DNA from: Oceanispirochaeta sp.
GTDB lineage: Bacteria; Spirochaetota; Spirochaetia; DSM-2461
Direction: 5' to 3'
Length of the DNA: 64,000 bases
Assembly (NCBI GenBank): GCA_963666275.2
Contig: CAXXOA010000001.1
Span: 256,001 to 320,000 of the forward strand
The position numbers and the translations under genes were made by a program. Positions 43,687-57,233 of the stretch are shown here, in pieces. How positions within the stretch are numbered: position 1 is the first letter of the stretch; each line of letters begins with the position of its first letter. The notes under the pieces were generated by a model. The model made no database searches, was not told where the DNA came from, and worked only from the letters and a program-made list of their open reading frames with translations.

Positions 43687-44580
43687 TTACTCCTCAAGAT
43701 TCTCATTGGCCCTGGAGAGGTATTTCTGGGCCAGCAGGGTGATAGTCAGAGCAACGATCACAAATACAATAGAAATTGCATTCCCATAGCCGTAGCGGGA
43801 GTAGCGGAAGGCCTGTTCATAGAGGTGGTAGGCCACGAACTGAGTCAGGTTTCCCGGGCCGCCTTCGGTTGAAAGCAGAACAATTTCCATCTGCTTCAGG
43901 CAGGATGTTATGTCTATAATTATGACAGCCTGAATGACAGGCAGCATGTAGGGTATTATCACTGACGTATAACGTCTAACCGGTCCTGCCCCGTCCATAA
44001 CTGCGGCCTCGTGAAGTTCTTTCGGGACTGTTGTCAGACCTGAGTAATAGAACAGAAGCGCCCAGCCGAAGCCGTGCCAGACTGTTATGAAAATTATAGA
44101 TCCCAGAGCTGTTTTCGGATCGCTTATCCAGCTGTGCTGCCAGCTTTCCAGCCCTACAGATGCAAGAAGCTTGTTTATAAGTCCGTAATTGGGATTCATA
44201 ATATTGGTCCACAGCTTTGTTATCACCACCACAGTTAAAATGGCGGGTATAAAATATATGGTTCTCAGAAAAAGTGAGTATTTTTCTTTCAATTGATTCA
44301 GAACAGACGCAAGGATAAATGCCAGGGGATTCTGTATGAATACGGTTACGATCAGCAACAGGAATGCGTTCAGAAGGGAACGCCAGAATGTGGCGTCCTG
44401 CAGGATTACTTCCCTGTAGTTTGCCAGGCCTGTGAAGTCTCTGGCCCCGAAACCCGACCAGTCGGTAAAACTGTAATACACACTCAGAAGTATGGGCGCC
44501 ACTATGGCAAAGAGCATAATCAGCACTCCCGGGCCGACAAGCCAGAAAATGGTTCTCTTACTTGTAAATAATTGGTTCAT
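43687..44580 (-). CDS. Carbohydrate ABC permease (MalF-type)
   Basis: YSFTDW, GLANY, EAAVMDGA, GGPG. Confidence 0.93.
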   Translation of the reverse strand: MNQLFTSKRTIFWLVGPGVLIMLFAIVAPILLSVYYSFTDWSGFGARDFTGLANYREVILQDATFWRSLLNAFLLLIVTVFIQNPLAFILASVLNQLKEKYSLFLRTIYFIPAILTVVVITKLWTNIMNPNYGLINKLLASVGLESWQHSWISDPKTALGSIIFITVWHGFGWALLFYYSGLTTVPKELHEAAVMDGAGPVRRYTSVIIPYMLPVIQAVIIIDITSCLKQMEIVLLSTEGGPGNLTQFVAYHLYEQAFRYSRYGYGNAISIVFVIVALTITLLAQKYLSRANENLEE

Positions 44581-44611
44581 TCTTTTAGCCTTTGAAAATC
44601 TTTAAAATAGA

Positions 44612-44635
44612 CTTCCCTGCATTTCTGCAGGGAAG
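44612..44635. other. Intercistronic stem-loop after SBP gene
   Basis: CTTCCCTGCA-TTTC-TGCAGGGAAG. Confidence 0.55.
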
Positions 44636-44645
44636 CAGAGGCCGG

Positions 44646-45962
44646 TTATTTAAGAGCTTTCTGGAGAGCTTCGTCCAGAGAGGTGCAGAACTGCTGAGGA
44701 GTAATAATACCGGCAGCAAGGTCTTTGCAGAGTTTTTGATGGGATTCCTTGAAAGCCGCATCCAGCATGTCCAGAGAAGTTGTCCCGCTGGTTGCGCGTG
44801 CGGAACCGCTGATACTCAGAAGATCTTTTGCCAGTTGATTGTCATCGTCGTTGGGTTCGATAGCCTGGGCGGGAAAACCGGCCTGAAGATCCCACATGAT
44901 TTTAGGATATTCCCGGGCATATAATTCCAGATAGTCCATGGCAAGGTCCTCATAATCGCTGTCGGCTTTGACTATATAGTTTCCGCCGTACCAGGCAATC
45001 AGATTGTTTCTCTGATCCTCTCTGCCGGCTATCACTGGGAATTTGGCGGCTCTGACATTTGTACGAAACCTTTCCGAGAAGTTTTCATCGCTGGCCATAC
45101 CCATTTCCCAGGGGCCCATCAGATACATGGCTGCCTGTTCCTGACCGAAAAGGTTCCGGGAGGCGCCATAATCCGTGGTGACAAGATCATTCCTGAAAAT
45201 ACCGCTTTCATAGAAAATTTCCTGGTAGAGCTCGGCAGCTTTCAGGAATTCAGGATCCGTGAAATGCCTCTTTCCCTGGAGGGCTTCAGACATGACACTG
45301 TAGTCTCCCGTGACTCTCCAGAGAATATTGTCGTAACTGATACTCAGGGGCCAGCCGTCTTTTCCGTCAGTAACCGCCGGGATGTATCCGGCTGCGGAGA
45401 GTGCAGCCGCTGCGGACTTCATTTCGGTAAATGTGGTAGGGACGTCTATTCCCACTTCGTCAAAAATCGCTTTATTATAAAACACAACCCAGAAGTCTGC
45501 CGTCAGGGGAATTCCGTACAGTTCTCCGCCGTAAACATTTCCCTCCAGAGCGCCGGGCATCCAGGGCAGGGACGCAAAACGCCTTCTGTCCAGGGGTTCC
45601 ACCATCCTACTGTCAACTAGTGGTTTCAGCAGTGTGGAAAAACTCCAGTATTTCATAATATCCGGAAGCTGTCCGGCAGTGGCGTATATCTTGATTTTCT
45701 GCTGATAGGGCTGATCCTGATAGCTTTCCACATCAAATGATACTTCCGGATGCTGTTTAATGAATTCTCTGTTGATGGCTTCCGCTACCGCACCGAGCCC
45801 TACAGTTCTATCGGGCAGATTATCCCCCATTTTAATAACCACCGAATCACCGGCGGCATCACTCTGACCCGAAGCAAAAAGAAACCCTGTCGAAAGCAGC
45901 AGAACCAGTGAAAAGACTAGTGTTTTCATCCGATACTTCATTGAAATTCTCCTTTGTGTCAC
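44646..45962 (-). CDS. Carbohydrate ABC substrate-binding protein
   Basis: Signal ending FASGQ, LPDI, LYGIP, FYNKAIF, AAMYLMGPW; true start probably a few codons downstream. Confidence 0.9.
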   Translation of the reverse strand: MTQRRISMKYRMKTLVFSLVLLLSTGFLFASGQSDAAGDSVVIKMGDNLPDRTVGLGAVAEAINREFIKQHPEVSFDVESYQDQPYQQKIKIYATAGQLPDIMKYWSFSTLLKPLVDSRMVEPLDRRRFASLPWMPGALEGNVYGGELYGIPLTADFWVVFYNKAIFDEVGIDVPTTFTEMKSAAAALSAAGYIPAVTDGKDGWPLSISYDNILWRVTGDYSVMSEALQGKRHFTDPEFLKAAELYQEIFYESGIFRNDLVTTDYGASRNLFGQEQAAMYLMGPWEMGMASDENFSERFRTNVRAAKFPVIAGREDQRNNLIAWYGGNYIVKADSDYEDLAMDYLELYAREYPKIMWDLQAGFPAQAIEPNDDDNQLAKDLLSISGSARATSGTTSLDMLDAAFKESHQKLCKDLAAGIITPQQFCTSLDEALQKALK

Positions 45963-46073
45963 TGTTTATCCCAAGGCGGAAAACAGTAGAAATGATTTGA
46001 TCTGTTTTCAGATTAACACTGGATTTCCTATCCAGAAATGAATCTGGTTATGGTTTCTTGATCTTTTGAATGA

Positions 46074-47243
46074 TTAGTTCTTCCCTTGGGAGGCATACCT
46101 GTTGGGGGTCATTCCTGTGGCTTTTTTGAAAATCCTTGAAAAGTGCTCTACATTGGGATATCCGACATTTTCACTGATTTCATAAACTTTAAGATTGGTT
46201 GCCAGAAGAAGTTCCTTTGCCTGATCCACCCTTACTTTCGTCACATAATCTCTGAAAGTGATTCCCGTTTCTTTATGGAACTGAGAACTCAGATGGGGTT
46301 TGCTGACTTCGACAAAGGAGCTGACTTCCTCCAGGGACAAGGTGGAGGAGGCAAAGTTTTTTTTGATGAATTTTTTCGCTTTTCTTATAATCCTACTCTC
46401 GATGGCCGGGAGGGAGCGTACATAACTGTATTGTCCGGGAATATCCTGGAGGGTTTCGCACTGACAGCTTATAGCATAATCCAGAGAGATATCCATACCA
46501 TTCTGTATGATTTCCAAAAAGTCCCGGCAAAAGGATTCGCAGGTGTTTATTGCGGATTCCAGGCCCTTTTCGACAGAGATTAGAAAAAAAAACTCGCCCT
46601 TTTCTGTCAGAAAAAATGTAACGGTCATCTCTCTTTTTTTCAGAAACTGGGATGCCTGCAGTTTGAGCATTTCCCTCTGAGTTTCCTGAATCGTCTCATT
46701 GCCCCACATATAGCAGAGACGGATCGGCGGCTGGATCCGGATCCCCAGATCTGCCAGGACAGGGAGGGTTATTTCAGGATTCCGGTTTTCAAAAAGGTCC
46801 ATAAGGAGCCTTTGTTTCAGATAGTTCAGGTCTTTTGTATTTAGGGCTGATGTACTGATACCGGAGGGGGAAATCTCATCCTTTTTTCTATTCAGAAGGT
46901 CAAGAAGAGTCGTTTCATCCAGATCTGATTTTAGAATGTAATCAAGAGCTCTCAGTTGAAATGCTTCTCTCACATAGGAATAGTTGTCATTGGCACTGAG
47001 GACTATGACATGGGGAGGGTTCTCCCATTTTTCAAGTTCTCTTAGAAATTCCAGTCCGTCCATGACGGGCATTTGAATGTCCAGCAGGATCAGATCCACA
47101 GTATTATTCCGAAGTTGAAACAGGGCGTCTCTCCCGTCAGAGGCTTCACAGGAAAAGGTAAATCCGTGTTCTTCCCAGTTCAGAAAAGACTGGATCGAAG
47201 CTCTGACAAGGGGTTCATCATCTACGATCATCAGGGATAACAT
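46074..47243 (-). CDS. YesN-like response regulator (REC + AraC)
   Basis: VDDE, LDIQMPVMDG, YILK; C-terminal AraC HTH. Confidence 0.93.
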   Translation of the reverse strand: MLSLMIVDDEPLVRASIQSFLNWEEHGFTFSCEASDGRDALFQLRNNTVDLILLDIQMPVMDGLEFLRELEKWENPPHVIVLSANDNYSYVREAFQLRALDYILKSDLDETTLLDLLNRKKDEISPSGISTSALNTKDLNYLKQRLLMDLFENRNPEITLPVLADLGIRIQPPIRLCYMWGNETIQETQREMLKLQASQFLKKREMTVTFFLTEKGEFFFLISVEKGLESAINTCESFCRDFLEIIQNGMDISLDYAISCQCETLQDIPGQYSYVRSLPAIESRIIRKAKKFIKKNFASSTLSLEEVSSFVEVSKPHLSSQFHKETGITFRDYVTKVRVDQAKELLLATNLKVYEISENVGYPNVEHFSRIFKKATGMTPNRYASQGKN

Positions 47244-48996
47244 CAGAAATCTCCTTATTCAGCGGCAGGTAAATATCCGTGCGGGTATAAAAATCCGGAC
47301 GGCTTCTCATTAAAAGACCGTATTCCTCTCCGTAATTCAGCTTGATTCGTCTATTCACATTATATATACCAATTCTCGTGAGGGTTCCCGCAGGGGAGGA
47401 GTCGGGTTTAACAGGGAAAGGATTTTCTTTCAGATCCACCCCGCACCCGTTATCACATATTCTCAAAAGCAGTTTCTTTTCCTTTCCTATGGCGTGGATT
47501 TGTATCAGTATATAGCCTTTCCCCTTTTTCCGGGAAAATCCATGGATAATAGAATTTTCAATGATAGGCTGAAGCAGCATTTTCAGAATGGAATAGGATG
47601 CCAGTTCCGGGGCTATGGAAAAGCGGAGCTCAATAGGAGTACTGAAGCGTACCTTCATAATGTGGACATAGCTCTCCAGGGATTTCATCTCTTCCTGCAG
47701 AGTCGTCTTATTTCCCTCTCCCCGAAAACTGTCATTTATGATCTGCATTAACGAAGATGTCATATTTTTAATGTTTTCATTTTTTTTCACCACAGCCATA
47801 AGTCGGATGGCATTCAGAGTATTGGCAACAAAATGAGGATTGATCTGATACTGTAGAGCCTGAAGTTCAAGAAGGCTCTTTTCCCTGTCTATACTGGTCT
47901 GTTTTTCTGTCAGTTCCCTTACCTGATTTATCATTCTGTTGAAACTGTGAAACAGATGATTCAATTCCGGCTGATCCGGAACCTGAACCCTGACAGCATA
48001 ATCTCCTTTTTCTACAAGCTGCATTTTTTCAATAAGCATGTTGAGAGGAGATATCATGTTATGAAAAAAGAAAAACGTATACAGAATAAAAAAGATGAAC
48101 AGAACAGCAAAAATAAGATAGAAGAAGCGCCGAATCCTGTAAAAGGGTTGGAGAAAGGCATGAATATCTATGACATGATGGAGAGTCCAATCGGTACTCT
48201 CTATTGTAGAGGTCAGAACCAGCCATCTTGATCTATCTGTTTTTCCATTACTTTCAGGATTTTCCAGAGAGTCCACCATGCTATTTCCTTGCGGTGCCAG
48301 AATAACATTTCCCTCAGCATCGGTCAGATAGGAAAACTGCTGAAGTGAGGAGCTGCTGTAAATCTTATTGAGTATTTTTATCTTATAGGCAAACAGGACT
48401 TTTTCAATGGAAAGCCCGTTTTCTGTCGGCCCCGGATGAACCGCCAGATAGAGGAGGGGATCTTCGGATTCCCCGGGACTATTCCTGTAGATATTGAAAA
48501 AATCGTCCGAGATATGGACTACACCTCTGGTTTCTTCAACTGATTTCAGCAGACGTTCATCCGGAAGCGGATTCTCCGGCAGATTCGCAATCATTGGGAA
48601 GTTCCGGAACAGAAAGACTGGTTTGTTCCTTGTATAGACGAAAACAATTCCCACTTTACTTGTGTAAAGGAACAGGCGGCTCAGTTCCAGATCCAGAGCT
48701 TCGCTCTGTCTGTATATATCCTGCGGATCCACGGCGCTGTCGTAAAGGTCGCAGACCACTTTAAAGTTATCATTATGGATCAGAGCACTGGAGAGTATAG
48801 AGACTGATGCGATTTCATTGTTGAGATTGGATGCTATCTGATTTACTGTTTCCTGCATTTGGATCTTTGTCAGATCACTCTGATACCGGCTGTATGTGAC
48901 ACTAGTGATGAAGGTGAAGATAAAAACGGGGGCAATGACAAGCAGGAGGAAACTGAGTAGGTATTTGATGGATAGAGTGTGAATCTTCAGGTTCAT
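47218..48996 (-). CDS. YesM/LytS-like sensor histidine kinase
   Basis: LQYQINPHF, LQPIIENSIIHG, DNGCG, IGIYNV. Confidence 0.93.
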   Translation of the reverse strand: MNLKIHTLSIKYLLSFLLLVIAPVFIFTFITSVTYSRYQSDLTKIQMQETVNQIASNLNNEIASVSILSSALIHNDNFKVVCDLYDSAVDPQDIYRQSEALDLELSRLFLYTSKVGIVFVYTRNKPVFLFRNFPMIANLPENPLPDERLLKSVEETRGVVHISDDFFNIYRNSPGESEDPLLYLAVHPGPTENGLSIEKVLFAYKIKILNKIYSSSSLQQFSYLTDAEGNVILAPQGNSMVDSLENPESNGKTDRSRWLVLTSTIESTDWTLHHVIDIHAFLQPFYRIRRFFYLIFAVLFIFFILYTFFFFHNMISPLNMLIEKMQLVEKGDYAVRVQVPDQPELNHLFHSFNRMINQVRELTEKQTSIDREKSLLELQALQYQINPHFVANTLNAIRLMAVVKKNENIKNMTSSLMQIINDSFRGEGNKTTLQEEMKSLESYVHIMKVRFSTPIELRFSIAPELASYSILKMLLQPIIENSIIHGFSRKKGKGYILIQIHAIGKEKKLLLRICDNGCGVDLKENPFPVKPDSSPAGTLTRIGIYNVNRRIKLNYGEEYGLLMRSRPDFYTRTDIYLPLNKEISDVIPDDRR

Positions 48997-49101: not shown

Positions 49102-49147
49102 AAAAAAAAAAGCTGCAACTAACCCTTTCGGATCTGTAGCAGCTTTT
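49102..49147 (-). terminator. Intrinsic terminator of tat/AOR operon
   Basis: AAAAGCTGC...GCAGCTTTT stem with U-run on minus strand. Confidence 0.65.
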
Positions 49148-49181: not shown

Positions 49182-49364
49182 TTAATCTTTCTTTTCTTTT
49201 GTTTCTTCAGACTTACCGTCCAGCTCGGATGAACCTTCTTCCATTCCGTCTTTGAACTCTTTCTTGGCTTTACCGAGATTTCTTGCAAACTTGGGAATAG
49301 CCGAAGCTCCGAAAAGGAGTACAACAACTCCTCCGATTACCATGACTTCTGTTGTTCCTAACAT
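49182..49364 (-). CDS. tatA: Twin-arginine translocase TatA
   Basis: VLLFG..IPKFARNLGKAKKEFK. Confidence 0.92.
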   Translation of the reverse strand: MLGTTEVMVIGGVVVLLFGASAIPKFARNLGKAKKEFKDGMEEGSSELDGKSEETKEKKD

Positions 49365-49366
49365 AA

Positions 49367-49735
49367 TTATGACTCCTTCTGTTCATCCGGCTTCTCCCCG
49401 GATGAATCGCTTTTATTTATTATTGGGGACGTATCCTCTTTCTTTTCAGTTAAATCATTCGGGTTAAAGGATAAATCCTTTTTAAGGGCTGTATCAAAAT
49501 TCGCGACTTCGCTCCGCATTCTTGCGTTCATCGCCCGGATCTCTTTCATCTCTTCATCGATCCCGATCTCTTTTTCAATATTCATGGCTTCTTTCTTCAC
49601 CATGGTATAATAGTAGTAGACCCTTGCCCATACTTTTCCGATTTTCCGGAAGATCATCGGCAGTTCCTGGGGTTTTACAAATATGAGCAGCAAAGCTGCA
49701 ATTATCAGTATTTCCTGAAAACCTATTCCGTTCAT
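49367..49735 (-). CDS. tatB: Twin-arginine translocase TatB
   Basis: IGFQEILII...PQELP..RKIGK; between tatC and tatA. Confidence 0.8.
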   Translation of the reverse strand: MNGIGFQEILIIAALLLIFVKPQELPMIFRKIGKVWARVYYYYTMVKKEAMNIEKEIGIDEEMKEIRAMNARMRSEVANFDTALKKDLSFNPNDLTEKKEDTSPIINKSDSSGEKPDEQKES

Positions 49736-50514
49736 TGACTAACCTCTTCTCCTTCTCCGAACCGGAATATCTTGGCCACCAGAATAGCACAGAAATAAAG
49801 AATGATCAGCGGGGTGGAGATGATACACTGGGAAATAAAATCCGGAGGCGTTATGATGGCCGCTGCGATAAATACAAGGACAATCACAAAGCGGCTGGCC
49901 TTAAAAAGAGCTTTCCGGGAGAACACATTTAAAATCAGCAGAACCTCCAGAAGGATGGGGAACTGAAAACTCAGCATGATCATCAGGATAAACCGGAAAA
50001 TATAGAGAACGTTTTTCTGATAGTTCAGCATAAATCCCACATTCTCGGGGAGAAAGCCGCTGCTTGTGAAAAACTTAACAGTCAGTGGCAGAATGTAGTA
50101 ATAACCGTAGTAAAACCCTACAAGAACCAGCAGGGCCCCACAGACAAGAGCTCCGAAAAGGACATTTTTCTCTTTCCGCCTGAGGGCGGGCAGAGAGAAC
50201 CTGACAATCATGAAAATTATAATGGGAGCGGCCAGGGTCAGTCCGGCCATAACCGATATTTTCAGTTTTGTCAGAAATCCTTCGAAAAGGAAGTTCACAA
50301 AAAGGGTATCTGATGTTTCCAGTCCTTCCATGGTGGAGAAGGGTTCATACAGGAAGTTGATAACCGGGTCGAAAAAATAAAAGGCTACCGCACTGCAGAC
50401 AACAAGAGCGATGATGGAGACAAGGAACACATTCCTCAATTCCCTGATATGGGTCATGATGGGCTGTTCGATTAAAGTTTCCTCTTGAGGATTATTCTTT
50501 TTTTTCTTTTTCAT
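49732..50514 (-). CDS. tatC: Twin-arginine translocase TatC
   Basis: HIRELR, PAL...EK, FQFP, AAIITPPD. Confidence 0.93.
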   Translation of the reverse strand: MKKKKKNNPQEETLIEQPIMTHIRELRNVFLVSIIALVVCSAVAFYFFDPVINFLYEPFSTMEGLETSDTLFVNFLFEGFLTKLKISVMAGLTLAAPIIIFMIVRFSLPALRRKEKNVLFGALVCGALLVLVGFYYGYYYILPLTVKFFTSSGFLPENVGFMLNYQKNVLYIFRFILMIMLSFQFPILLEVLLILNVFSRKALFKASRFVIVLVFIAAAIITPPDFISQCIISTPLIILYFCAILVAKIFRFGEGEEVSQ

Positions 50515-51194
50515 GCCGATGTCGCATCCAGCAGGTAGAAGAAGGGTGAGGCACTCTCAATTCTTCCTATGATCTCTGCATTTCCTTTACTGAGAATGTC
50601 GCAGGCCCGGGTGGTGGCAATGCTGCGGCTTACAAGAAGAGGCAGCCTGCATACAGCGGCTTTTTCCGCAATTTCCGAGTTGATCCTGCCTGAAGAAAAA
50701 TAGATAAGCCCCGCAGGGGAGACATTTTTCCTGACCGCAGCTCCGATGGCTTTATCAAAGGCATTGTGCCTTCCTACATCCTCATAGAGCGCCAGGATTT
50801 CCTTCCCGTCCGAGAGAGCCGCACAATGAATCCCTCCATGGTCCAGGTACTTGGACGCAGAGTTTTTTATCGTATCCGCAAGGCCCTTCACATCCTCCAG
50901 GGACAGATCCCCGGGAAGTGCATCCGGTACCGGCAAAGTATGCTGCTCCCGTTTCAGTTCTACCCGGATATTATCGTATACATGACCGTTTTCTTCGATT
51001 TTTTCAATTATTAACTGGTCTATCTGTTTTTCTGACTGGATCACATCCCGGCAGAAAAGGTGTCCCACAGCCAGCTCTTCCAGAGCCTCGGGGGTACAGA
51101 GGAAGGAATGGTATAAATCATCCCCCAGATAAAGATAGACTTCGCATTCCTCTACCTGAGGACGCATACATTTTGAAATGGAATTTTTTAACAT
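50511..51194 (-). CDS. fdhD: FdhD/NarQ family molybdenum-cofactor accessory protein
   Basis: TPEALEELAVG, GGIHCAAL, EDVGRHNAFDKAIG, SSGRI. Confidence 0.85.
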   Translation of the reverse strand: MLKNSISKCMRPQVEECEVYLYLGDDLYHSFLCTPEALEELAVGHLFCRDVIQSEKQIDQLIIEKIEENGHVYDNIRVELKREQHTLPVPDALPGDLSLEDVKGLADTIKNSASKYLDHGGIHCAALSDGKEILALYEDVGRHNAFDKAIGAAVRKNVSPAGLIYFSSGRINSEIAEKAAVCRLPLLVSRSIATTRACDILSKGNAEIIGRIESASPFFYLLDATSA

Positions 51195-51749
51195 CTATTG
51201 CGACTCCATACTGCCGACGGACTCCCATTCGGCAAGATATTCAGCCCTGGCTCTGGAAAGATACTTTTCTGAATACAGATAAACATCTCCATTTGAGGCT
51301 TTTGTCCTGAAAATGTCCTTGAACTGGTCATTGTCGGCGACAAGAGCTTCCATCGCTGCCTCAAGCTGTCCGGATTCCAGCCTGTAGGGAGGATCCAGAA
51401 ACATATCAATTCTGCTGGGACGGGGATAGAGTCCGGACTCTTTCCGTACGGTCTCAGCAATGGTTCTGAGATTATCTCCTTCTGCGGCAAAATTCAATGC
51501 TTCCGCATAGGAGTCACTCATTATTTTTTCATCATAGCAGCGCAGTCTTTCTTTTCCCGAAAGGACTCTGACAGGAGACTGTCCGTCGGAGTTCAAATCC
51601 GCCAGAGACTGCCGTATCAGGGAGTTGGAATATTCCTCAGATTCCTGCTCGGCAAAGAGGTCTGTCAGTTCCAGGTCGTCTATAAGTCGCGACTCTGCAG
51701 AAGCGGCCGAAACCGCTTCTGCAAGAATCTCATTCACTGAGATACTCAT
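51195..51749 (-). CDS. YdhW-like oxidoreductase-system protein
   Basis: IAETVR...YPRP, YLYSEKY, EW motifs; directly after YdhV-like gene. Confidence 0.65.
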   Translation of the reverse strand: MSISVNEILAEAVSAASAESRLIDDLELTDLFAEQESEEYSNSLIRQSLADLNSDGQSPVRVLSGKERLRCYDEKIMSDSYAEALNFAAEGDNLRTIAETVRKESGLYPRPSRIDMFLDPPYRLESGQLEAAMEALVADNDQFKDIFRTKASNGDVYLYSEKYLSRARAEYLAEWESVGSMESQ

Positions 51750-51754
51750 AAACC

Positions 51755-53854
51755 TCAGGCAAGCAGACCGAGGCTTTCCAGCTCATCGGCTACATCTTTC
51801 ATTTCATTTTTTTCCAGAGTGGCTCTGGTGGGGATTCCAGTCTCTTCATCCCATCCCATCTCTTTATAGAAAAAGGTAAGAGCTTTATTGTAGTCATCCC
51901 TGTCAAGTTTAATGGTTCCTTCACTGAAGGGTTCTTTATCCGGATCCATGGTGTACTGCCAGCCTGTCAGCTGATCATGGTCTTCTCTCAGATTTTTGGA
52001 GTTCATCTGTTTGGCTGTCAGGGCCCTATGAAGCTGGAATGTCCTTTCCGCATAGCCGTCAAGAGTTTCCTCATTCACATTAAATCCAGTAGCCATGGAG
52101 AAGAACTGGGCTTCCAGAGAGGTATCTCCCCTGTAATTCTGCTCTTTCAGAGGTGATGTAGTCATGGGCCACATCCAGTTACAGAGAGTCAGTGAGTCAT
52201 GCAAAACATTTCTGACGATACTCCATTTGGTAAACTTCGCTTTTGCTTCATTGGCCGGAGTATAGGACGCAGGCTGATCAATGGCGCCTTCACCGAAGAG
52301 TTCTGCCGCAATCTCCTGCTGAATTTCCGTGGGAAGACCGCTTCCCAGCAGGTTCTGATGGGTATGGCACTGGGCGTCTCTGTTGAACATAGAGGAGATC
52401 ACCGCTCCCACAACACCATTGGATTCATTGCTGTGGTGAACCGGGTAACCGACCTTTGTCCAGAGTTTGTTGCCCTTGTATGTCCAGTAGTCTTCAGGAA
52501 GGTCCCATTTTTCCGCCAGGTAGTGAGCACCCTCTCCCAGAGTTGCCAGTTCGCCCTCTTTAAAGGCTATACGGCGATAGAATTCCTGGAAGAAGCTGAT
52601 GTCTCCGGCTTCCAGCTTTTCAAGCTGAAGTGAGTTATACTCTTCCCTGGGAAGAACCTTTTCCAGAATCCCGTGATGCAGGGTGTACTGAAAATCCCGT
52701 CCTATCTGGCCATAGTTACACCAGACACCGTAATCGTCGGCGATCTGAGCTCCCATTGTTCTTCCAATGACGGTCATTTCGTCTTTGGTCTTCCCTTCCA
52801 TTTTATAGTTTCCGTTCATAACGTAGTTGGGGGAGAAGAATCCCATGCAGGAGTTGGACGCGTTGGGGCTGACTCCAAACTGTTCCAGTTCGGGAACATA
52901 GGTATGGGAGTGACAGCGGATAGGACAGGAGGCGCATCCTCCCATTCTCACTGTATACTGAGGAGCAGCAGGTCCCAGGTCCTTGATAGCCTTCATGGTT
53001 CTGTAACCGATTTTGTTATGCTCCTGGGGAGTAATTTCTCCGGTTTCGATAGGATACTCGGCGGCTTCCCATGCCAGTCCCTTCTGGGCTGTCCAGCGGC
53101 TGCCGGGATGATGATATTCCGCCCAGGCCTGGGGTGTGGAGGGTACAACATGCTGGTTGTTGGCTCCAACAACTTTCAGAGCTGCTTCATTCAGGGCATG
53201 CCATTTCAGTTTATCCCCCGCAATCTTGACTGATCCGGTTCCCCGGATACCGATGGCTTTGAGCATCTTGGATCCCATAACACCGCCGTGACCGCCTGCT
53301 GAGTGGCTGGCTCCGGTTCTGATAACAGAGAGGTTTACCTGATTTTCACCGGCCTGTCCGATACAGGCTACCTGGGAATCTTTACCCATAAGGCCTGTTA
53401 CTTCTTTCATGGTATCAAAGGTTCCGTGTCCCCAGAGCATGGTGGCATCTTCCAGGGTGACATCCTGGTCCGCAATACGCAGCCATACGGGTTTGTCAGA
53501 TTTTCCTTCGATAATGATGGCATCATACCCGGCATATTTCAGTTCCACTGCAAAGTGACCGCCCATGTGGCTGTCGGAAACACCGTGGAAGGGGTTGGAT
53601 GCCAGCAGGCTGGTAATGTTGGTCCGGCCGCTGCACATGGCGCCGGTTCCCGTCAGGGGGCCGACTCCGAAAATGATTTTATTTTCTTCGGCAAAAGGGT
53701 GTGTTCCTGTGGGAACTTCGTCCCACATCACTTTATATCCGATTCCCATTCCGCCGATGAAGTATGTATATTTTTCCGTGGATTCACGGGTTATTGATCC
53801 TGTACTAAGGTTTACGCGCAGGATAGTACCTGCCCATCCGCCATTAATTGCCAT
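51755..53854 (-). CDS. Aldehyde:ferredoxin oxidoreductase family protein (YdhV-like)
   Basis: GWAGTILRVNL, GPLTGT, HMGG, ELKYAGYD, GCASCPIRC, DSLTLCNW, MGWD...GIPTRATL. Confidence 0.9.
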   Translation of the reverse strand: MAINGGWAGTILRVNLSTGSITRESTEKYTYFIGGMGIGYKVMWDEVPTGTHPFAEENKIIFGVGPLTGTGAMCSGRTNITSLLASNPFHGVSDSHMGGHFAVELKYAGYDAIIIEGKSDKPVWLRIADQDVTLEDATMLWGHGTFDTMKEVTGLMGKDSQVACIGQAGENQVNLSVIRTGASHSAGGHGGVMGSKMLKAIGIRGTGSVKIAGDKLKWHALNEAALKVVGANNQHVVPSTPQAWAEYHHPGSRWTAQKGLAWEAAEYPIETGEITPQEHNKIGYRTMKAIKDLGPAAPQYTVRMGGCASCPIRCHSHTYVPELEQFGVSPNASNSCMGFFSPNYVMNGNYKMEGKTKDEMTVIGRTMGAQIADDYGVWCNYGQIGRDFQYTLHHGILEKVLPREEYNSLQLEKLEAGDISFFQEFYRRIAFKEGELATLGEGAHYLAEKWDLPEDYWTYKGNKLWTKVGYPVHHSNESNGVVGAVISSMFNRDAQCHTHQNLLGSGLPTEIQQEIAAELFGEGAIDQPASYTPANEAKAKFTKWSIVRNVLHDSLTLCNWMWPMTTSPLKEQNYRGDTSLEAQFFSMATGFNVNEETLDGYAERTFQLHRALTAKQMNSKNLREDHDQLTGWQYTMDPDKEPFSEGTIKLDRDDYNKALTFFYKEMGWDEETGIPTRATLEKNEMKDVADELESLGLLA

Positions 53855-53866
53855 GGTTTACTCCTC

Positions 53867-54517
53867 CTATACCTGAAAGTGTTCTTTGTATTTCTGAAGT
53901 GCCTCAGCCCAGGTCACATAGGACAGGGCGCCGGTGGGGCAGGCTTTGACACAGGCTGTATAGCCGTGGCAGAGAATACATTTGGTTGATACATTGGTTT
54001 CGGGATCCAGAGTGGGGATCCCCCAGGGACAGGCTCTTGTACAGGTTCCGCAGCCGACGCATTTTTCCGCATCCACTTCACGGGCTCCTGTGGCTTCCTG
54101 CTGGAAAATAGCTCCCTGCGGACAGGCCAGACCACAGGCCGGCTGTTCGCACTGGCGGCAGGTGTCAGCTGTCATGGTGTAATTTCCCATTTCTCCGGCA
54201 CCGTGAACCCAGTCGCCTCTGACCCCTTTGGATCCATAGGCCAGATTCTGGCTGACTTTGATTCTGGCTGTTACCTGGCTGGCTTTTCCGTCGTTTCCGA
54301 CAGAACATGTGGATTCGCACATAAGGCAGCCCGTACAGCGGGGCGGTTCATGAATGATCATACCGTCTGCAGCTTCGAATACCTGAATATCTTTTGATTT
54401 ACAACCCGGCAGCAGCCATGAAGCGGCTCCGGCTCCGATTGTTCCCAGTCCTGTAAACTTGAGAAAATCCCGGCGGGTAATTGCCGTGTTTAGAAGTTTG
54501 TTTTCTTTTACGGACAC
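53867..54517 (-). CDS. Multi-[4Fe-4S] subunit with Tat lipoprotein signal (YdhY/X-like)
   Basis: TRRDFLK, LLPGC lipobox, four Cys clusters (CTGCLMCESTC, CRQC..PAC..ACP, CVGCGTCTRACP, KCILC..ACVKACP); GTG 54517 with GGAGGAG RBS. Confidence 0.88.
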   Translation of the reverse strand: MSVKENKLLNTAITRRDFLKFTGLGTIGAGAASWLLPGCKSKDIQVFEAADGMIIHEPPRCTGCLMCESTCSVGNDGKASQVTARIKVSQNLAYGSKGVRGDWVHGAGEMGNYTMTADTCRQCEQPACGLACPQGAIFQQEATGAREVDAEKCVGCGTCTRACPWGIPTLDPETNVSTKCILCHGYTACVKACPTGALSYVTWAEALQKYKEHFQV

Positions 54518-54540
54518 AATATCTCCTCCATTGTTTGTAG

Positions 54541-54640
54541 TCTCCTTTTCAAACACGGGAGGCAGCCATCGTTTCCAAGGTACCCAATGTCCGGAATCCA
54601 TAGACGAAGAGATCGTCCTTAGGGGGGTCCGGATCGGAGC
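54541..54640 (-). ncRNA. Moco-class riboswitch, P3-less (tungsten-cofactor/Wco-type) variant
   Basis: Minus strand CTCCG...CCTAAG...TATGG...GGGT...GAAA...GCCTCCCGTGTTTGAAAAGGAG, matching the Moco RNA pattern, in the leader of an AOR operon. Confidence 0.85.
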
Positions 54641-54652
54641 TTTATGTTTTTT

Positions 54653-54681
54653 ATTATAGGCCCGGAAGTCTTATTCGTAAA
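54653..54681 (-). promoter_or_regulatory. Promoter of riboswitch/AOR operon
   Basis: Minus strand TTTACG-17-TATAAT ending 12 nt before the aptamer. Confidence 0.65.
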
Positions 54682-54871
54682 GTATCTATCGATAAAAAAG
54701 TAGTTATTAAAAGCCTTTATAATTGGGTTGTTGATATAATTTCTTGCTGTCCCTGAAAATAGAGGCATAATTTTTTTTTAGAGGGAAATTCCCGCTTTTC
54801 ACAGGCTCTTTCGGGTGAATAGAACATGAGAATCATGGCATTCCTTATGTAAGCTTGCTATACTCTATAGT

Positions 54872-55393
54872 ATGAAAGAAATAAGCCTTAACGAAGCATT
54901 GAATAAACAGATTAAAAAAATCATGCCTTTCAAATTCCTTGAACCTGTTCCTTCTGACTTTCTGCTTGAACGGTCGGAAGTTTATGAATATGAGGAAGGA
55001 GAGATCATTATCCATCAGGGAGATGTGAACCAGTCTTTCTATTCGATTGTGTCCGGAACTATTAATGTCACTGTTCATAATGAGAACGGAACCGACAGCT
55101 ATATCTGCTCCATCGGGCAGGGAGAAGTCTTCGGTGAGGCAGGAATGTTTCTGAAAGTTCCCCGGACAGCCAATGTCACAGCGGGAGAAACCACCAGGGT
55201 CGTTATGATCCCCAGGAACAGTATTCTGAAGCTGATCAGGGAATTCCCCGAAAACGGAAATAAGTTCCTTCTTATGATTATTTTCAGTCTTCTGAGGAAA
55301 CTGAAGGGATCCAATCAGGAACTGGCCTTTGAGCGGCGCAGCGATTCTGATCAGGATGATATTGATGATCTTGTAAACAGTCTCCTGAGCTGA
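54872..55393 (+). CDS. Stand-alone cyclic-nucleotide-binding domain protein
   Basis: IIHQGD, GEVFGEAG, PRTANV; no HTH. Confidence 0.88.
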   Translation: MKEISLNEALNKQIKKIMPFKFLEPVPSDFLLERSEVYEYEEGEIIIHQGDVNQSFYSIVSGTINVTVHNENGTDSYICSIGQGEVFGEAGMFLKVPRTANVTAGETTRVVMIPRNSILKLIREFPENGNKFLLMIIFSLLRKLKGSNQELAFERRSDSDQDDIDDLVNSLLS

Positions 55394-55531: not shown

Positions 55532-56698
55532 TTACGGAATCATAATTCCCTTGAGGTAATCTTCGTCTCCCATCTTTTTCAGAGTATCCAGAAGACCGTC
55601 CAGATCGGTTTTATGGGTAAACATTTTATGGAGAGGGATTGTTTTGTGGCGCTTCAGAATCTGAAACGCCTTGTCAAAGGCTCCGGGATGGTTGGCGCTC
55701 ATTCCGAGGATCCTGGCATGTTTGCTGCAGATCAGTCTGGCCGGATCAAATGAGATCTCTTTGCCCTGGTTCACCATGTTTCCCACTTCCACATAGGTTC
55801 CCAGGCGGCGCATCATTTCTAGTCCGTCAATAAAGGTTTCCACGTTATTGGAGCACTGCATAACCACGTCGGCCCCTCCGCCAGTCAGGTCTTTTACCAT
55901 TTCGATCCGCTGGGAACGGCTGTATTTATGATAGTCGATGACATGATCCACCCCGGCGATCTCTTCTGAAAGATCCAGCCTTTTCTGACGGCTTCCTATC
56001 ATAATCACCTGCTGGGCTCCCATAAGGCGGCAGTAGAGGGCTGTCAGTACTCCCACCTGGCCGGAACCGATGACAACCACCCGGGAGCTTGTTGTGAGGC
56101 CCTGTTCCATGATCCCCGGGCCAGTCAAAGCCAGTTCCACTGCCCTGACCGCTACAGCCATGGGGTCAAGGAGAACCGCAATTTCCGATGGCATATCCTC
56201 CGGAACTTTCCAGAGATAGGTTTCGGGGAATACATAGGTATATTCGGCGAAGCCGCCCATGAAATGGGGCCATCGGCTTATATCTGAACTGATGGTTTCC
56301 TTTCCTTCCAGCCCCAGTTTTGAATAGGGGACTCCGTATACAAAAGAGCTGTCGCAGGTGGTGCAGGTTCCCGGTCTGTTGCTCAGACATCCGGGGCATT
56401 TTCCGCAGGTTATCCAGGGGTACAGAACGACCCTGTCTCCCTCTTTGACGGGGCCCTCATAAATGTTCAGAGAACCCGCTGCTTTCGAGCCCATGCCGAT
56501 TATGGTCCCTGTGACCTCATGGCTCATTATGGCGGGGTAGGGCGGCGTATCCTGAATCAGATGACCATCGGTACCGCAGATACCGGCGGCATCCACTTTT
56601 AAGAGGAGGCCGTCCTCCTTTACCTGGGGAACATCCAGTTCACGAATCTCTATGTCGTATTTTCCCAGCCAGACAGCGGCTTTTCCTTTTTTCTGCAT
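55532..56698 (-). CDS. Zinc-dependent alcohol/polyol dehydrogenase (MDR)
   Basis: GICGTD, SHEVTG, CGKCPGC...C, GSGQVG. Confidence 0.88.
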   Translation of the reverse strand: MQKKGKAAVWLGKYDIEIRELDVPQVKEDGLLLKVDAAGICGTDGHLIQDTPPYPAIMSHEVTGTIIGMGSKAAGSLNIYEGPVKEGDRVVLYPWITCGKCPGCLSNRPGTCTTCDSSFVYGVPYSKLGLEGKETISSDISRWPHFMGGFAEYTYVFPETYLWKVPEDMPSEIAVLLDPMAVAVRAVELALTGPGIMEQGLTTSSRVVVIGSGQVGVLTALYCRLMGAQQVIMIGSRQKRLDLSEEIAGVDHVIDYHKYSRSQRIEMVKDLTGGGADVVMQCSNNVETFIDGLEMMRRLGTYVEVGNMVNQGKEISFDPARLICSKHARILGMSANHPGAFDKAFQILKRHKTIPLHKMFTHKTDLDGLLDTLKKMGDEDYLKGIMIP

Positions 56699-56724
56699 AG
56701 TTATTCCTCCTTTGCATCCCTGTC

Positions 56725-56770
56725 ATTATATTCTGCTTGACAAATTTGTTCTAGTGTTTTAAAACACTAG
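56725..56770. promoter_or_regulatory. Divergent promoters plus operator copy 3
   Basis: Perfect palindrome CTAGTGTTTTAAAACACTAG (56751-56770); TTGACA at 56737 (+); TATAAT at 56725-56730 (-). Confidence 0.8.
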
Positions 56771-56798
56771 GATAATCCAATTCTGCAGGAGAAATATT

Positions 56799-57233
56799 AT
56801 GCTGAAGGGTATACCTAAAATACTCTCTCCCGAGCTTGTAAAAGTTCTGATGGAGATGGGACATGGAGACGAAATTGTCATATCCGACGGAAACTTCCCC
56901 GCTGTTACATGCGGACAGCAGGTGGTCAGGGCCGACGGGCATGGTGTTCCCGAAATTCTGGATGCGATCCTGACCCTTTTTCCCCTGGATCCCTATGGTG
57001 AGGAAGTTCCCGTCTCACTGATGGAGGTGGTTCCCGGAGATACAGTGGAAACCCCCATCTGGGATGAGTACAAGGCCATTGTCAAAAAACACAACTCTGA
57101 TTTCAAGGACTTCAACTTTATCGAGCGCTTTGAATTCTACGAAAGAACCAAAAAAACTTTTGCTGTTGTAGCTACCGGTGAAGCCGCCCTTTATGCTAAT
57201 ATTCTTATCCGTAAAGGGGTTGTGGTCGACTGA
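56799..57233 (+). CDS. fucU: RbsD/FucU family mutarotase
   Basis: MLKGIP, MGHGDEIVISDGNFP, ERFEFYE, TGEAALYAN, KGVV. Confidence 0.88.
   Translation: MLKGIPKILSPELVKVLMEMGHGDEIVISDGNFPAVTCGQQVVRADGHGVPEILDAILTLFPLDPYGEEVPVSLMEVVPGDTVETPIWDEYKAIVKKHNSDFKDFNFIERFEFYERTKKTFAVVATGEAALYANILIRKGVVVD

Follow-up and report, generated by a model that had tools for sequence, protein, structure and literature searches.

A Class V WOR operon in an Oceanispirochaeta genome: a predicted periplasmic enzyme encoded with an RNA motif and a Tat translocase that seems to be shared

Why should a gene for an enzyme of the aldehyde oxidoreductase (AOR) family lie in one operon with an RNA switch and a set of genes for twin-arginine translocation (Tat), and where would the electrons of such an enzyme go? 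These questions are raised by a minus-strand locus at positions 49182 to 54681 of a 64,000-nucleotide (nt) stretch of an Oceanispirochaeta sp. genome (assembly GCA_963666275.2, contig CAXXOA010000001.1, positions 256,001 to 320,000), which is called the window below. The initial annotation had described the locus as a self-contained operon for a lipid-anchored periplasmic aldehyde oxidoreductase with a dedicated translocase, itself under the control of the pterin cofactor. The explanation that we somewhat favor is that the operon specifies a periplasmic Class V enzyme of the WOR family that shares the Tat system of the cell with other substrates, that an ON switch acts on the first gene, worS, and that the electrons run through a flavin chain encoded in trans.

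All the parts that had been named, from riboswitch to terminator, were found in place on the minus strand. The first gene, worS (53867-54517; GTG start at 54517, 216 amino acids), encodes a YdhY-type polyferredoxin, an iron-sulfur (Fe-S) protein whose Tat signal and lipobox are specified within 54401-54517. It is followed by worL/ydhV (51755-53854; 699 amino acids, NF007354 over cut-off) for the predicted bis-pterin Mo/W subunit; ydhW/worW (51195-51749) for a signal-less, acidic tandem winged-helix protein of 184 amino acids; an fdhD-like gene (50511-51194; PF02634); tatC (49732-50514; PF00902); a tatB-like gene (49367-49735; TIGR01410 at 44.2 bits, E 2e-11, below the cut-off of 56.5); and tatA (49182-49364; TIGR01411 above cut-off). 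The intergenic gaps from worS through tatA are 12, 5, 0, -4, -4, and 2 nt. A sigma-70-type promoter with 10 of 12 consensus matches (54653-54681) lies directly upstream of the RNA motif (54526-54651); it was the best of 10 sites, against 7.9 expected by chance, and its -35 and -10 hexamers are alike at the equivalent position in 8 relatives. The promoter scan gave no internal promoter above chance inside the operon. Downstream of tatA, an intrinsic-terminator-like hairpin (approximately 49102-49147, minus strand; -24.8 kcal/mol fold, 10-U tail) was missed by a consensus terminator scan and seen by folding. The locus is thus predicted from its sequence to be a seven-gene operon with an RNA motif and a terminator. 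Genome-wide searches, here and below, refer to the host genome, which is 97% complete.

The large subunit identifies the family. WorL scored 1086.7 bits on the YdhV equivalog NF007354 (cut-off, 868), compared with 106.6 bits for the other AOR-family protein of the genome, and its nearest relatives are spirochaetal, with 82% identity to a protein on a Marispirochaeta contig. The AFOR_N domain begins at residue 9, so that the protein has no signal peptide of its own, as had been noted. The best NCBIfam match of WorS was the YdhY-type NF007382 (185.9 bits, below the cut-off of 213). A twin-arginine motif occupies residues 14 to 20 and a lipobox ends in Cys39; R15, R16, and F18 were invariant among 34 aligned homologues, and the Tat-signal profile PF10518 gave 17.4 bits, below its cut-off of 22.7. 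WorS holds 16 Cys, enough for four clusters. The original description of an Fe-S subunit with both a twin-arginine motif and a lipobox therefore stood. An ATG at 54601 was rejected as the worS start, being located inside the aptamer, while homologues start at the GTG. A seven-codon out-of-frame mini-open reading frame (approximately 54509-54532, minus strand) overlaps the Shine-Dalgarno (SD) sequence and start of worS; its ATG is not conserved in relatives.

In the accessible part of PMC13328260 (2026), a Class V WOR is a clade-41 enzyme (WOR41) whose WorS has a Tat signal. The window operon has the YdhV-clade WorL, the WorS with a Tat signal, and the further gene ydhW for a predicted subunit, and it is, as far as sequence can assign it, a Class V (clade 41, YdhYVW-type) WOR. 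The same text describes an LSW cluster of Cetobacterium somerae with downstream fdhD, tatA/E, and tatC, and its genus table of Class V WORs includes one spirochaete. The periplasmic orientation and the neighboring tat and fdhD genes are already published for Class V WORs, and the operon adds one more case to a known family without being a new kind of system. The present analysis adds the apparent sharing of the translocase among several substrates and a haem-or-flavin pattern at the electron exit.

The invariant residues of WorL bear on its chemistry. C307, C310, C314, C558, and C336 were conserved in 27 of 27 aligned homologues; the first four are probable 4Fe-4S ligands, and C336 is a probable metal ligand. 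The top Foldseek match of the structure model (pLDDT 89.5) was BamB (4z3w; TM score 0.74, 22% identity). A hidden Markov model alignment of WorL with 1aor was weak in the region of the second-shell Glu and His positions of AOR. As stated in the accessible part of PMC12096430, the metal is ligated by a Cys in the YdhV and BamB clades, which are without the AOR second-shell residues, and most AOR/WOR-family clades characterised so far oxidise aldehydes. None of 46 aldehydes was oxidised by C. somerae WorL, which comes from the one Class V enzyme assayed and preferred W over Mo (PMC13328260, available sections). The invariant C336, these clade traits, and the inactivity of C. somerae WorL suggest that "aldehyde oxidoreductase" is better taken as a family label than as a function. 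The picture of an exported, lipid-anchored Mo/W enzyme was thus retained, and the aldehyde part of it became doubtful; our leaning is away from a classical aldehyde oxidase. Tungsten is the more likely metal because the form of the RNA motif found here, which is without the P3 stem, correlates with the tungsten cofactor (Tuco) and because a TupA-like operon lies under a second P3-less motif. The second AOR-family gene of the genome (C1:2544070-2545809, L098) encodes a signal-less protein whose first Fe-S motif has CxxG in place of CxxC, and it lies beside a ThiF-like gene and a sigma-54 activator gene.

The translocase appears to have several clients. TatC scored 0.8 bit under TIGR00945 and well over PF00902; tatC is the only copy found in the genome, and tatA is the only copy above cut-off. 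A TatFind-like genome scan gave 74 raw matches, and 27 near plausible starts were listed; among these 27, five combined a canonical motif, a hydrophobic stretch, and a lipobox, namely, WorS and four FAD_binding_2 flavoproteins (C1:2520208, C2:768636, C2:1144137, and C2:1442826), each with a twin-arginine motif and lipobox. No tat genes accompany the four flavoprotein genes in this genome, and the predicted lipoproteins, if exported, must use the TatCBA of the operon. Two of the flavoproteins were traced in 23 family genomes: orthologues (77 to 92%) were present in 2 and 3 of them, all TatC-positive, none was found in the 13 family genomes without TatC, and the full-length orthologues each adjoin a tatC in relatives. 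The search for other tat genes and substrates that had been proposed thus yielded no second TatC/TatA set, together with four further candidate substrates; one Tat set seems to serve at least five predicted substrates, and the word "dedicated" had to be given up.

Among 401 sampled genomes of the class, 116 had TatC, and the notion of Tat as a rarity in spirochaetes was dropped; 18 had a WorL match. TatC was present in 17 of these 18, and a synteny survey of the kind suggested at the outset placed tatC within approximately 2 kb of worL in 14, in 9 of which it was the only TatC match; 3 genomes were split over contigs. Conversely, 99 of the 116 TatC-positive genomes had no WorL (WOR41) match. 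Across all phyla, tatC was present in 42 of 75 WOR41 loci, many of them short. In a TatC tree of 40 rows, a spirochaete clade (100/99) contained 9 WOR-linked and 8 flavoprotein-linked TatCs, including that of the window, and the clostridial and fusobacterial WOR-linked TatCs were separate from it. A single ancient WOR41-tat cassette was rejected in view of these two TatC lineages; the tat genes probably travel with their substrates and, as the tree and neighborhoods suggest, were joined to WOR41 more than once.

Several other tat neighborhoods were noted in the survey. A recurring spirochaete cassette (L106, L107, L108, L112, and L117) comprises a Tat flavoprotein gene, tat genes, and mostly a gene for a NapH-like Fe-S membrane protein; the L107 cassette also holds an FMN-binding gene. 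In four spirochaete genomes (L111, L114, L115, and L116), tatC lies beside clusters resembling radical-SAM maturase genes by sequence appearance, with no Pfam match for two tested, and L111 and L114 encode a long TatB-like fusion. At L118:3299-5545 (G031), a gene for a twin-arginine protein of the NADH:flavin oxidoreductase family converges on tatA of the WOR41 operon, so that a further Tat substrate adjoins the translocase.

The RNA motif at the head of the operon, a P3-less variant of the molybdenum cofactor (Moco)/Tuco motif, was the only Rfam match in the window (RF01055; 43.1 bits, cut-off 36), and the alignment showed P3 to be deleted. To our knowledge, the ligand of this riboswitch class has not been shown directly. 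The motif preceded worS in 11 of the 18 spirochaete WOR41 genomes, at 60 to 73 bits in relatives, and in none of the 11 non-spirochaete loci scanned. Two further motifs were found in the genome, one, P3-less, ahead of a tupA-moeA-moaA operon and one ahead of an ABC-type cluster; the window motif scores lowest of the three and carries a P5 mismatch. The accessible portion of PMC2408646 links the P3-less class to Tuco and reports that in E. coli moaA, the only tested member, the SD lies within P1 and ligand binding represses expression (OFF). The worS leader is arranged differently: its SD (54523-54529) lies downstream of and outside P1, starting 16 nt past the beginning of the P1 3' strand, and the start codon follows P1 by 24 nt. 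No terminator was found in the 24 nt before the worS start. The leader thus has neither of the alternative marks of the moaA-type OFF platform, namely, a terminator downstream of the aptamer or an SD lying in the 3' strand of P1. In the predicted ligand-free fold, the conserved CCUCCC of the aptamer (54557-54562, P4 3' strand/P5) would act as an anti-SD; the CCUCCC-SD pairing probability was 1.00 in the window leader and 0.82 to 1.00 in all 8 of the worS leaders scored, and forcing P1 and P4 raised SD accessibility in worS leaders from 0-0.18 to 0.24-0.64. None of the worS leaders examined had its SD within P1, in contrast to three uptake-gene leaders with the moaA layout (SD inside P1, start 5 to 6 nt after P1); three other uptake-gene leaders, that of the genome's own tupA included, were long and unclear in direction.

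A translational ON switch acting on worS alone is therefore what this layout, together with the folding models, would suggest, and we regard it as fairly probable. Because the worL gene carries a separate SD 12 nt beyond the stop codon of worS, such a switch would not directly reach the tat genes; Rho is encoded in the genome, and Rho polarity may couple the two. Of the proposal that the Tat machinery is under pterin control, an indirect effect at most is left. No report of an ON layout for the Moco motif was found in the mainly open literature searched. Two occurrences of the motif deserve mention. The strongest in the genome (77.6 bits) heads a three-gene set at C3:317824-322839 (L099) for a sugar-type binding protein, a lipoprotein whose molybdopterin domain is sulfite-oxidase-like, and a double permease, possibly for cofactor uptake, and L002 repeats this layout; at L093:8-307 (G019), two tandem P3-containing Moco motifs precede worS.

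Where the electrons go is suggested by the neighborhoods of related enzymes. It had been pointed out that the operon holds no membrane electron-acceptor subunit of the YdhU type, which proved correct and extends to the genome, in which neither PF01292 (YdhU type) nor PF03916 (NrfD) gave a match; no multi-haem protein was found either. The 75 WOR41 loci were scored as haem type (WorS ending in a CxxCH tail, or cytochrome b encoded nearby) or flavin type (a neighbor with an FMN-binding or flavinylation motif, an Ndh2 neighbor, or a WorS tail with an ApbE motif): 17 were of haem type, 19 of flavin type, and none of both. The C-terminal ends of 80 WorS homologues followed the same rule, with an ApbE flavinylation motif in 16 (P0015-P0031, L030:7272-7979, and L031:7017-7979), CxxCH in 48 (P0033-P0081), neither in 16, and both in 0; chance rates of the two end motifs were 8 and 7, respectively, of 6207 open reading frames. 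The mutually exclusive tails are worth a family-wide study. In a WorS tree (8 of 47 rows left out), the 16 flavin-tailed proteins form a single clade, so that the flavin tail counts as one event, not sixteen. Longer WorS fusions were not found at E <= 1e-45 among 7999 scored candidates, which is weak evidence. No report of a YdhY lipobox, or of flavin or haem tails on WorS, was found in the mainly open literature searched. The available part of PMC13328260 names cytochrome-containing and "unknown flavin-binding" subunits for WORs in general terms.

In two Anaerosolibacter loci (L006 and L010), genes for Ndh2, an FMN lipoprotein, ApbE, and a prenyl synthase lie directly 5' of worS; in L028, Ndh2 and prenyl synthase genes follow tatA; and in L032, an FMN-type gene sits between worL and ydhW. 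A candidate Ndh2 neighbor in L036 was rejected as being of the CoA-disulfide-reductase/rhodanese type. Wider flanks in 12 spirochaete genomes contained an FMN-motif lipoprotein gene in 4, Ndh2 in 1, menaquinone genes in 1, and none of these in 6, the window included. Elsewhere in its genome, the window organism encodes Ndh2 (39% to the L006 neighbor) and a prenyl synthase at C1:2474515-2477473, a two-FMN PplA-like lipoprotein (C3:86404-87213; 33% to the L032 insert; score 54.9, far below the family cut-off of 325), ApbE, MenA- and MqnP-like proteins, Rnf, Nqr, and 16 flavoprotein lipoproteins. The electrons of WorSL would thus probably pass through flavin-tagged proteins encoded in trans, and the proposed trade of electrons between WorS and flavinylated periplasmic lipoproteins would explain an operon without a membrane subunit. 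A link of a WOR-family enzyme to flavin-based extracytosolic electron transfer (EET) was not found in the accessible parts of two flavinylation surveys.

The two remaining genes of the operon may serve maturation. YdhW scored 123.9 bits on NF007411 (below the cut-off of 203) and 0.96 on Atlas YdhW_C; its model (pLDDT 93.8) is an acidic tandem winged helix with an isoelectric point (pI) of 4.35. No Foldseek match was found at E <= 0.001, and VIA-align gave only generic winged-helix matches, with a best Z of 9.5. Its homologues were acidic throughout (pI 4.2 to 5.6 in 28 of 28), and by this acidity alone a DNA-binding role is disfavored. The gene was found in 63 of 78 clustered WOR41 loci, and the accessible part of PMC9103625 knows of no cofactor chaperone for YdhV; YdhW is a candidate private chaperone of WorL. 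The fdhD-like gene is the only FdhD gene found in the genome. By a crude pattern match, a catalytic Cys loop was present in 21 of 39 FdhD reading frames of WOR41 loci (clostridial/fusobacterial) and absent from the window copy, which for that reason might handle cofactor instead of sulfur. The product of an FdhF-like gene at C1:467946 could be a second client of this protein. IscS copurified with C. somerae WorL (PMC13328260, accessible part) and is the sulfur donor of FdhD (PMC13653126, accessible part); from these two observations one may speculate that the published C. somerae preparation was an unmatured intermediate.

Taken together, these features suggest the following mechanism. WorL would take up its bis-pterin cofactor in the cytoplasm, aided by YdhW and the FdhD-like protein, and bind WorS, and the pair would cross the membrane on the twin-arginine signal of WorS, which would then be lipidated at Cys39; loading, export, and lipidation are read from motifs and from Tat precedent. 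TatCBA, as the only Tat system of the cell, would also export the four flavoprotein lipoproteins encoded elsewhere. Without cofactor, the CCUCCC strand would cover the ribosome-binding site of worS; with cofactor, the aptamer would fold and free the SD. Outside the membrane, the Fe-S wire of WorS would trade electrons with ApbE-flavinylated PplA-like lipoproteins and, through them, with the Ndh2/menaquinone chain in trans.

The opposing explanation closest to the initial annotation is that of an aldehyde oxidoreductase in the periplasm that has a Tat translocase to itself, both being switched by the pterin cofactor. The tight junctions from worL to tatA, the one terminator, the lack of an internal promoter above chance, and the presence of Rho all agree with it, as does the recurrence of tatC beside worL, often as the sole TatC match. 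It is nevertheless highly doubtful, given the four further Tat lipoproteins, for which no second translocase was found, the many TatC-positive genomes without WOR41, a switch on the worS SD only, Cys336, and the inactive C. somerae enzyme. The RNA motif may, instead, be an ordinary OFF switch or a decayed, functionless aptamer with control at the promoter: the only tested member of the class is OFF (PMC2408646, accessible part), the window copy has the lowest score and the P5 mismatch, and no copy precedes worS in 7 of the 18 spirochaete loci or in any of the 11 non-spirochaete loci scanned. Furthermore, the forced aptamer frees the SD only in part (0.24 to 0.64), the genome's own tupA leader gave no direction (0.22 versus 0.15), and CCUCCC complements any consensus SD, so that pairing is expected wherever an SD follows. 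For this last reason, the case for ON is built on the layout and not on the pairing number; the consistent position of the SD outside P1 in worS leaders and inside P1 in three uptake-gene leaders, and the upkeep of the motif in relatives, make the OFF or decayed alternative unlikely, without making it far-fetched.

As to the reaction, we incline very slightly to WorSL being a reductase of a periplasmic substrate rather than a dehydrogenase. Another scenario is an exported dehydrogenase of an aldehyde or other low-potential donor that feeds flavin carriers, flavin reductases, or Rnf/quinone, the published inactivity being due to missing WorS, YdhW, and FdhD. The C. somerae assay did use WorL purified without WorS and made without YdhW and FdhD (PMC13328260, accessible part), so that its negative result leaves room for aldehyde activity; most characterised clades of the family oxidise aldehydes; the BamB fold match is tied with aldehyde-oxidising AOR/FOR structures; and the many periplasmic flavin reductases of the genome need donors. 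The scenario is compatible with the flavin route. It has, in our judgment, a minor though appreciable chance, the YdhV clade being without the AOR second-shell residues and Ndh2-PplA-type systems, such as that of Listeria EET, usually pushing electrons outward. The electron partner, in turn, could be an unrecognised membrane protein (a NapH-like Fe-S protein or Rnf), the flavin neighbors elsewhere reflecting general clustering of redox genes. There is a NapH-like gene at C1:1310847, NapH-like genes flank flavoprotein-tat cassettes in relatives, the compared kin are not independent, and the window operon has no flavin neighbor; the mutually exclusive haem and flavin tails of WorS and the FMN-type gene inside the L032 operon make this alternative rather improbable. 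Further points weigh against the explanation that we favor. The window WorS has no C-terminal haem or flavin tail; in a tree from which the tails had been left out, the flavin-tailed WorS proteins are one clade close to its tailless clade; not every WorS has the lipobox (33 of 50 scored); and 39 of the 75 WOR41 loci, many of them short contigs, show neither module. Ndh2 occurs in 16 of the 18 WOR41 genomes, yet 138 of all 401 genomes have it, as do most members of the same families; a PplA-like protein occurs in 13 of 18, and ApbE and PF07456 occur in 18 of 18, a count without a background rate. ModA is also encoded, so that Mo is possible, and the evidence on this organism consists of sequence and models.

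A wider generalization, offered as conjecture and probably wrong in some part, is that Class V WORs are terminal enzymes of the periplasm whose WorS takes one of several interchangeable electron plugs: a c-type haem, a tail with covalently bound FMN, or a flavinylated lipoprotein that is free. In cytochrome-poor anaerobes, a tungstoenzyme would then be an end of the flavin-based Ndh2-quinone-PplA chain, and here a tungsten-cofactor ON riboswitch would, via Rho polarity, gate the sole Tat system and with it the export of four unrelated flavin reductases. The comparison offers practical handles: a candidate electron partner (a flavinylated lipoprotein, or else an FMN or haem tail carried by WorS); YdhW and the FdhD-like protein as candidate maturation factors, both missing when the published preparation was made; and a compact set of four genes for expression. 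If the Moco motif does occur in a tungsten-type ON form, that form would be a useful test case for the riboswitch class.

The surroundings of the operon were also inspected. A TTTATCGA-like motif at approximately 54686-54697 (minus strand), just 5' of the -35 box and present in 6 of 9 aligned leaders, is a possible regulator site. The divergent plus-strand gene at 54872-55393 encodes a lone cyclic-nucleotide-binding domain with no helix-turn-helix match, and the gene did not stand out as a conserved neighbor. Farther upstream, 55532-57233 contains an alcohol-dehydrogenase-family gene and a second gene, which we take to be RbsD/FucU-like; downstream, the minus-strand genes of 43687-48996 encode an unrelated two-component system and a sugar ABC transporter.

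Among known systems, the operon most resembles that of CsWOR41 of C. somerae (L023), with which it shares a Tat-signal worS, worL, and worW followed by fdhD-like and tat genes, 60% WorL identity, and no membrane subunit. It differs in that the window WorS has a lipobox and the C. somerae copy does not, the window TatCBA is of a lineage separate from the C. somerae TatAC, an RNA motif precedes the window worS and none was found in L023, the window FdhD is without the Cys loop, and the tup and moeA genes of the window genome lie elsewhere. E. coli ydhYVWXUT has orthologues of YdhY, YdhV, and YdhW in the window, with a Cys metal ligand; E. coli YdhV is reported to be a bis-Mo-MPT enzyme (Reschke 2019, as cited by later papers), whereas the window genome has TupA. 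No YdhX/U was found here (PF01292 and PF03916 had no match in the genome; YdhT was not searched for), and tat and fdhD are part of the window operon. BamB(C) of class II benzoyl-CoA reductase (4z3w) provides the best fold match and shares the Cys on the metal and a polyferredoxin partner, but it is cytoplasmic, in a 1-MDa bifurcating complex whose subunits are not in the window operon.

The Listeria flavin-based EET set consists of Ndh2, DmkA, DmkB, FmnB, and PplA, gut bacteria have flavin reductases of this general kind (bioRxiv 2022.12.26.521950), and the window genome correspondingly holds Ndh2, ApbE, a prenyl synthase, a MenA-like and a PplA-like protein, and many flavin-reductase lipoproteins. 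The E. coli moaA Moco motif (RF01055; PMC2408646, accessible part) has the same aptamer core of P1, P2, P4, and P5, but the window copy is without P3 and has its SD outside P1, which predicts ON versus OFF. Finally, B. subtilis TatAdCd and PhoD (PMC13673990, accessible part) are a precedent for tat genes encoded with a substrate, from which the window set differs in being predicted to serve at least five substrates.

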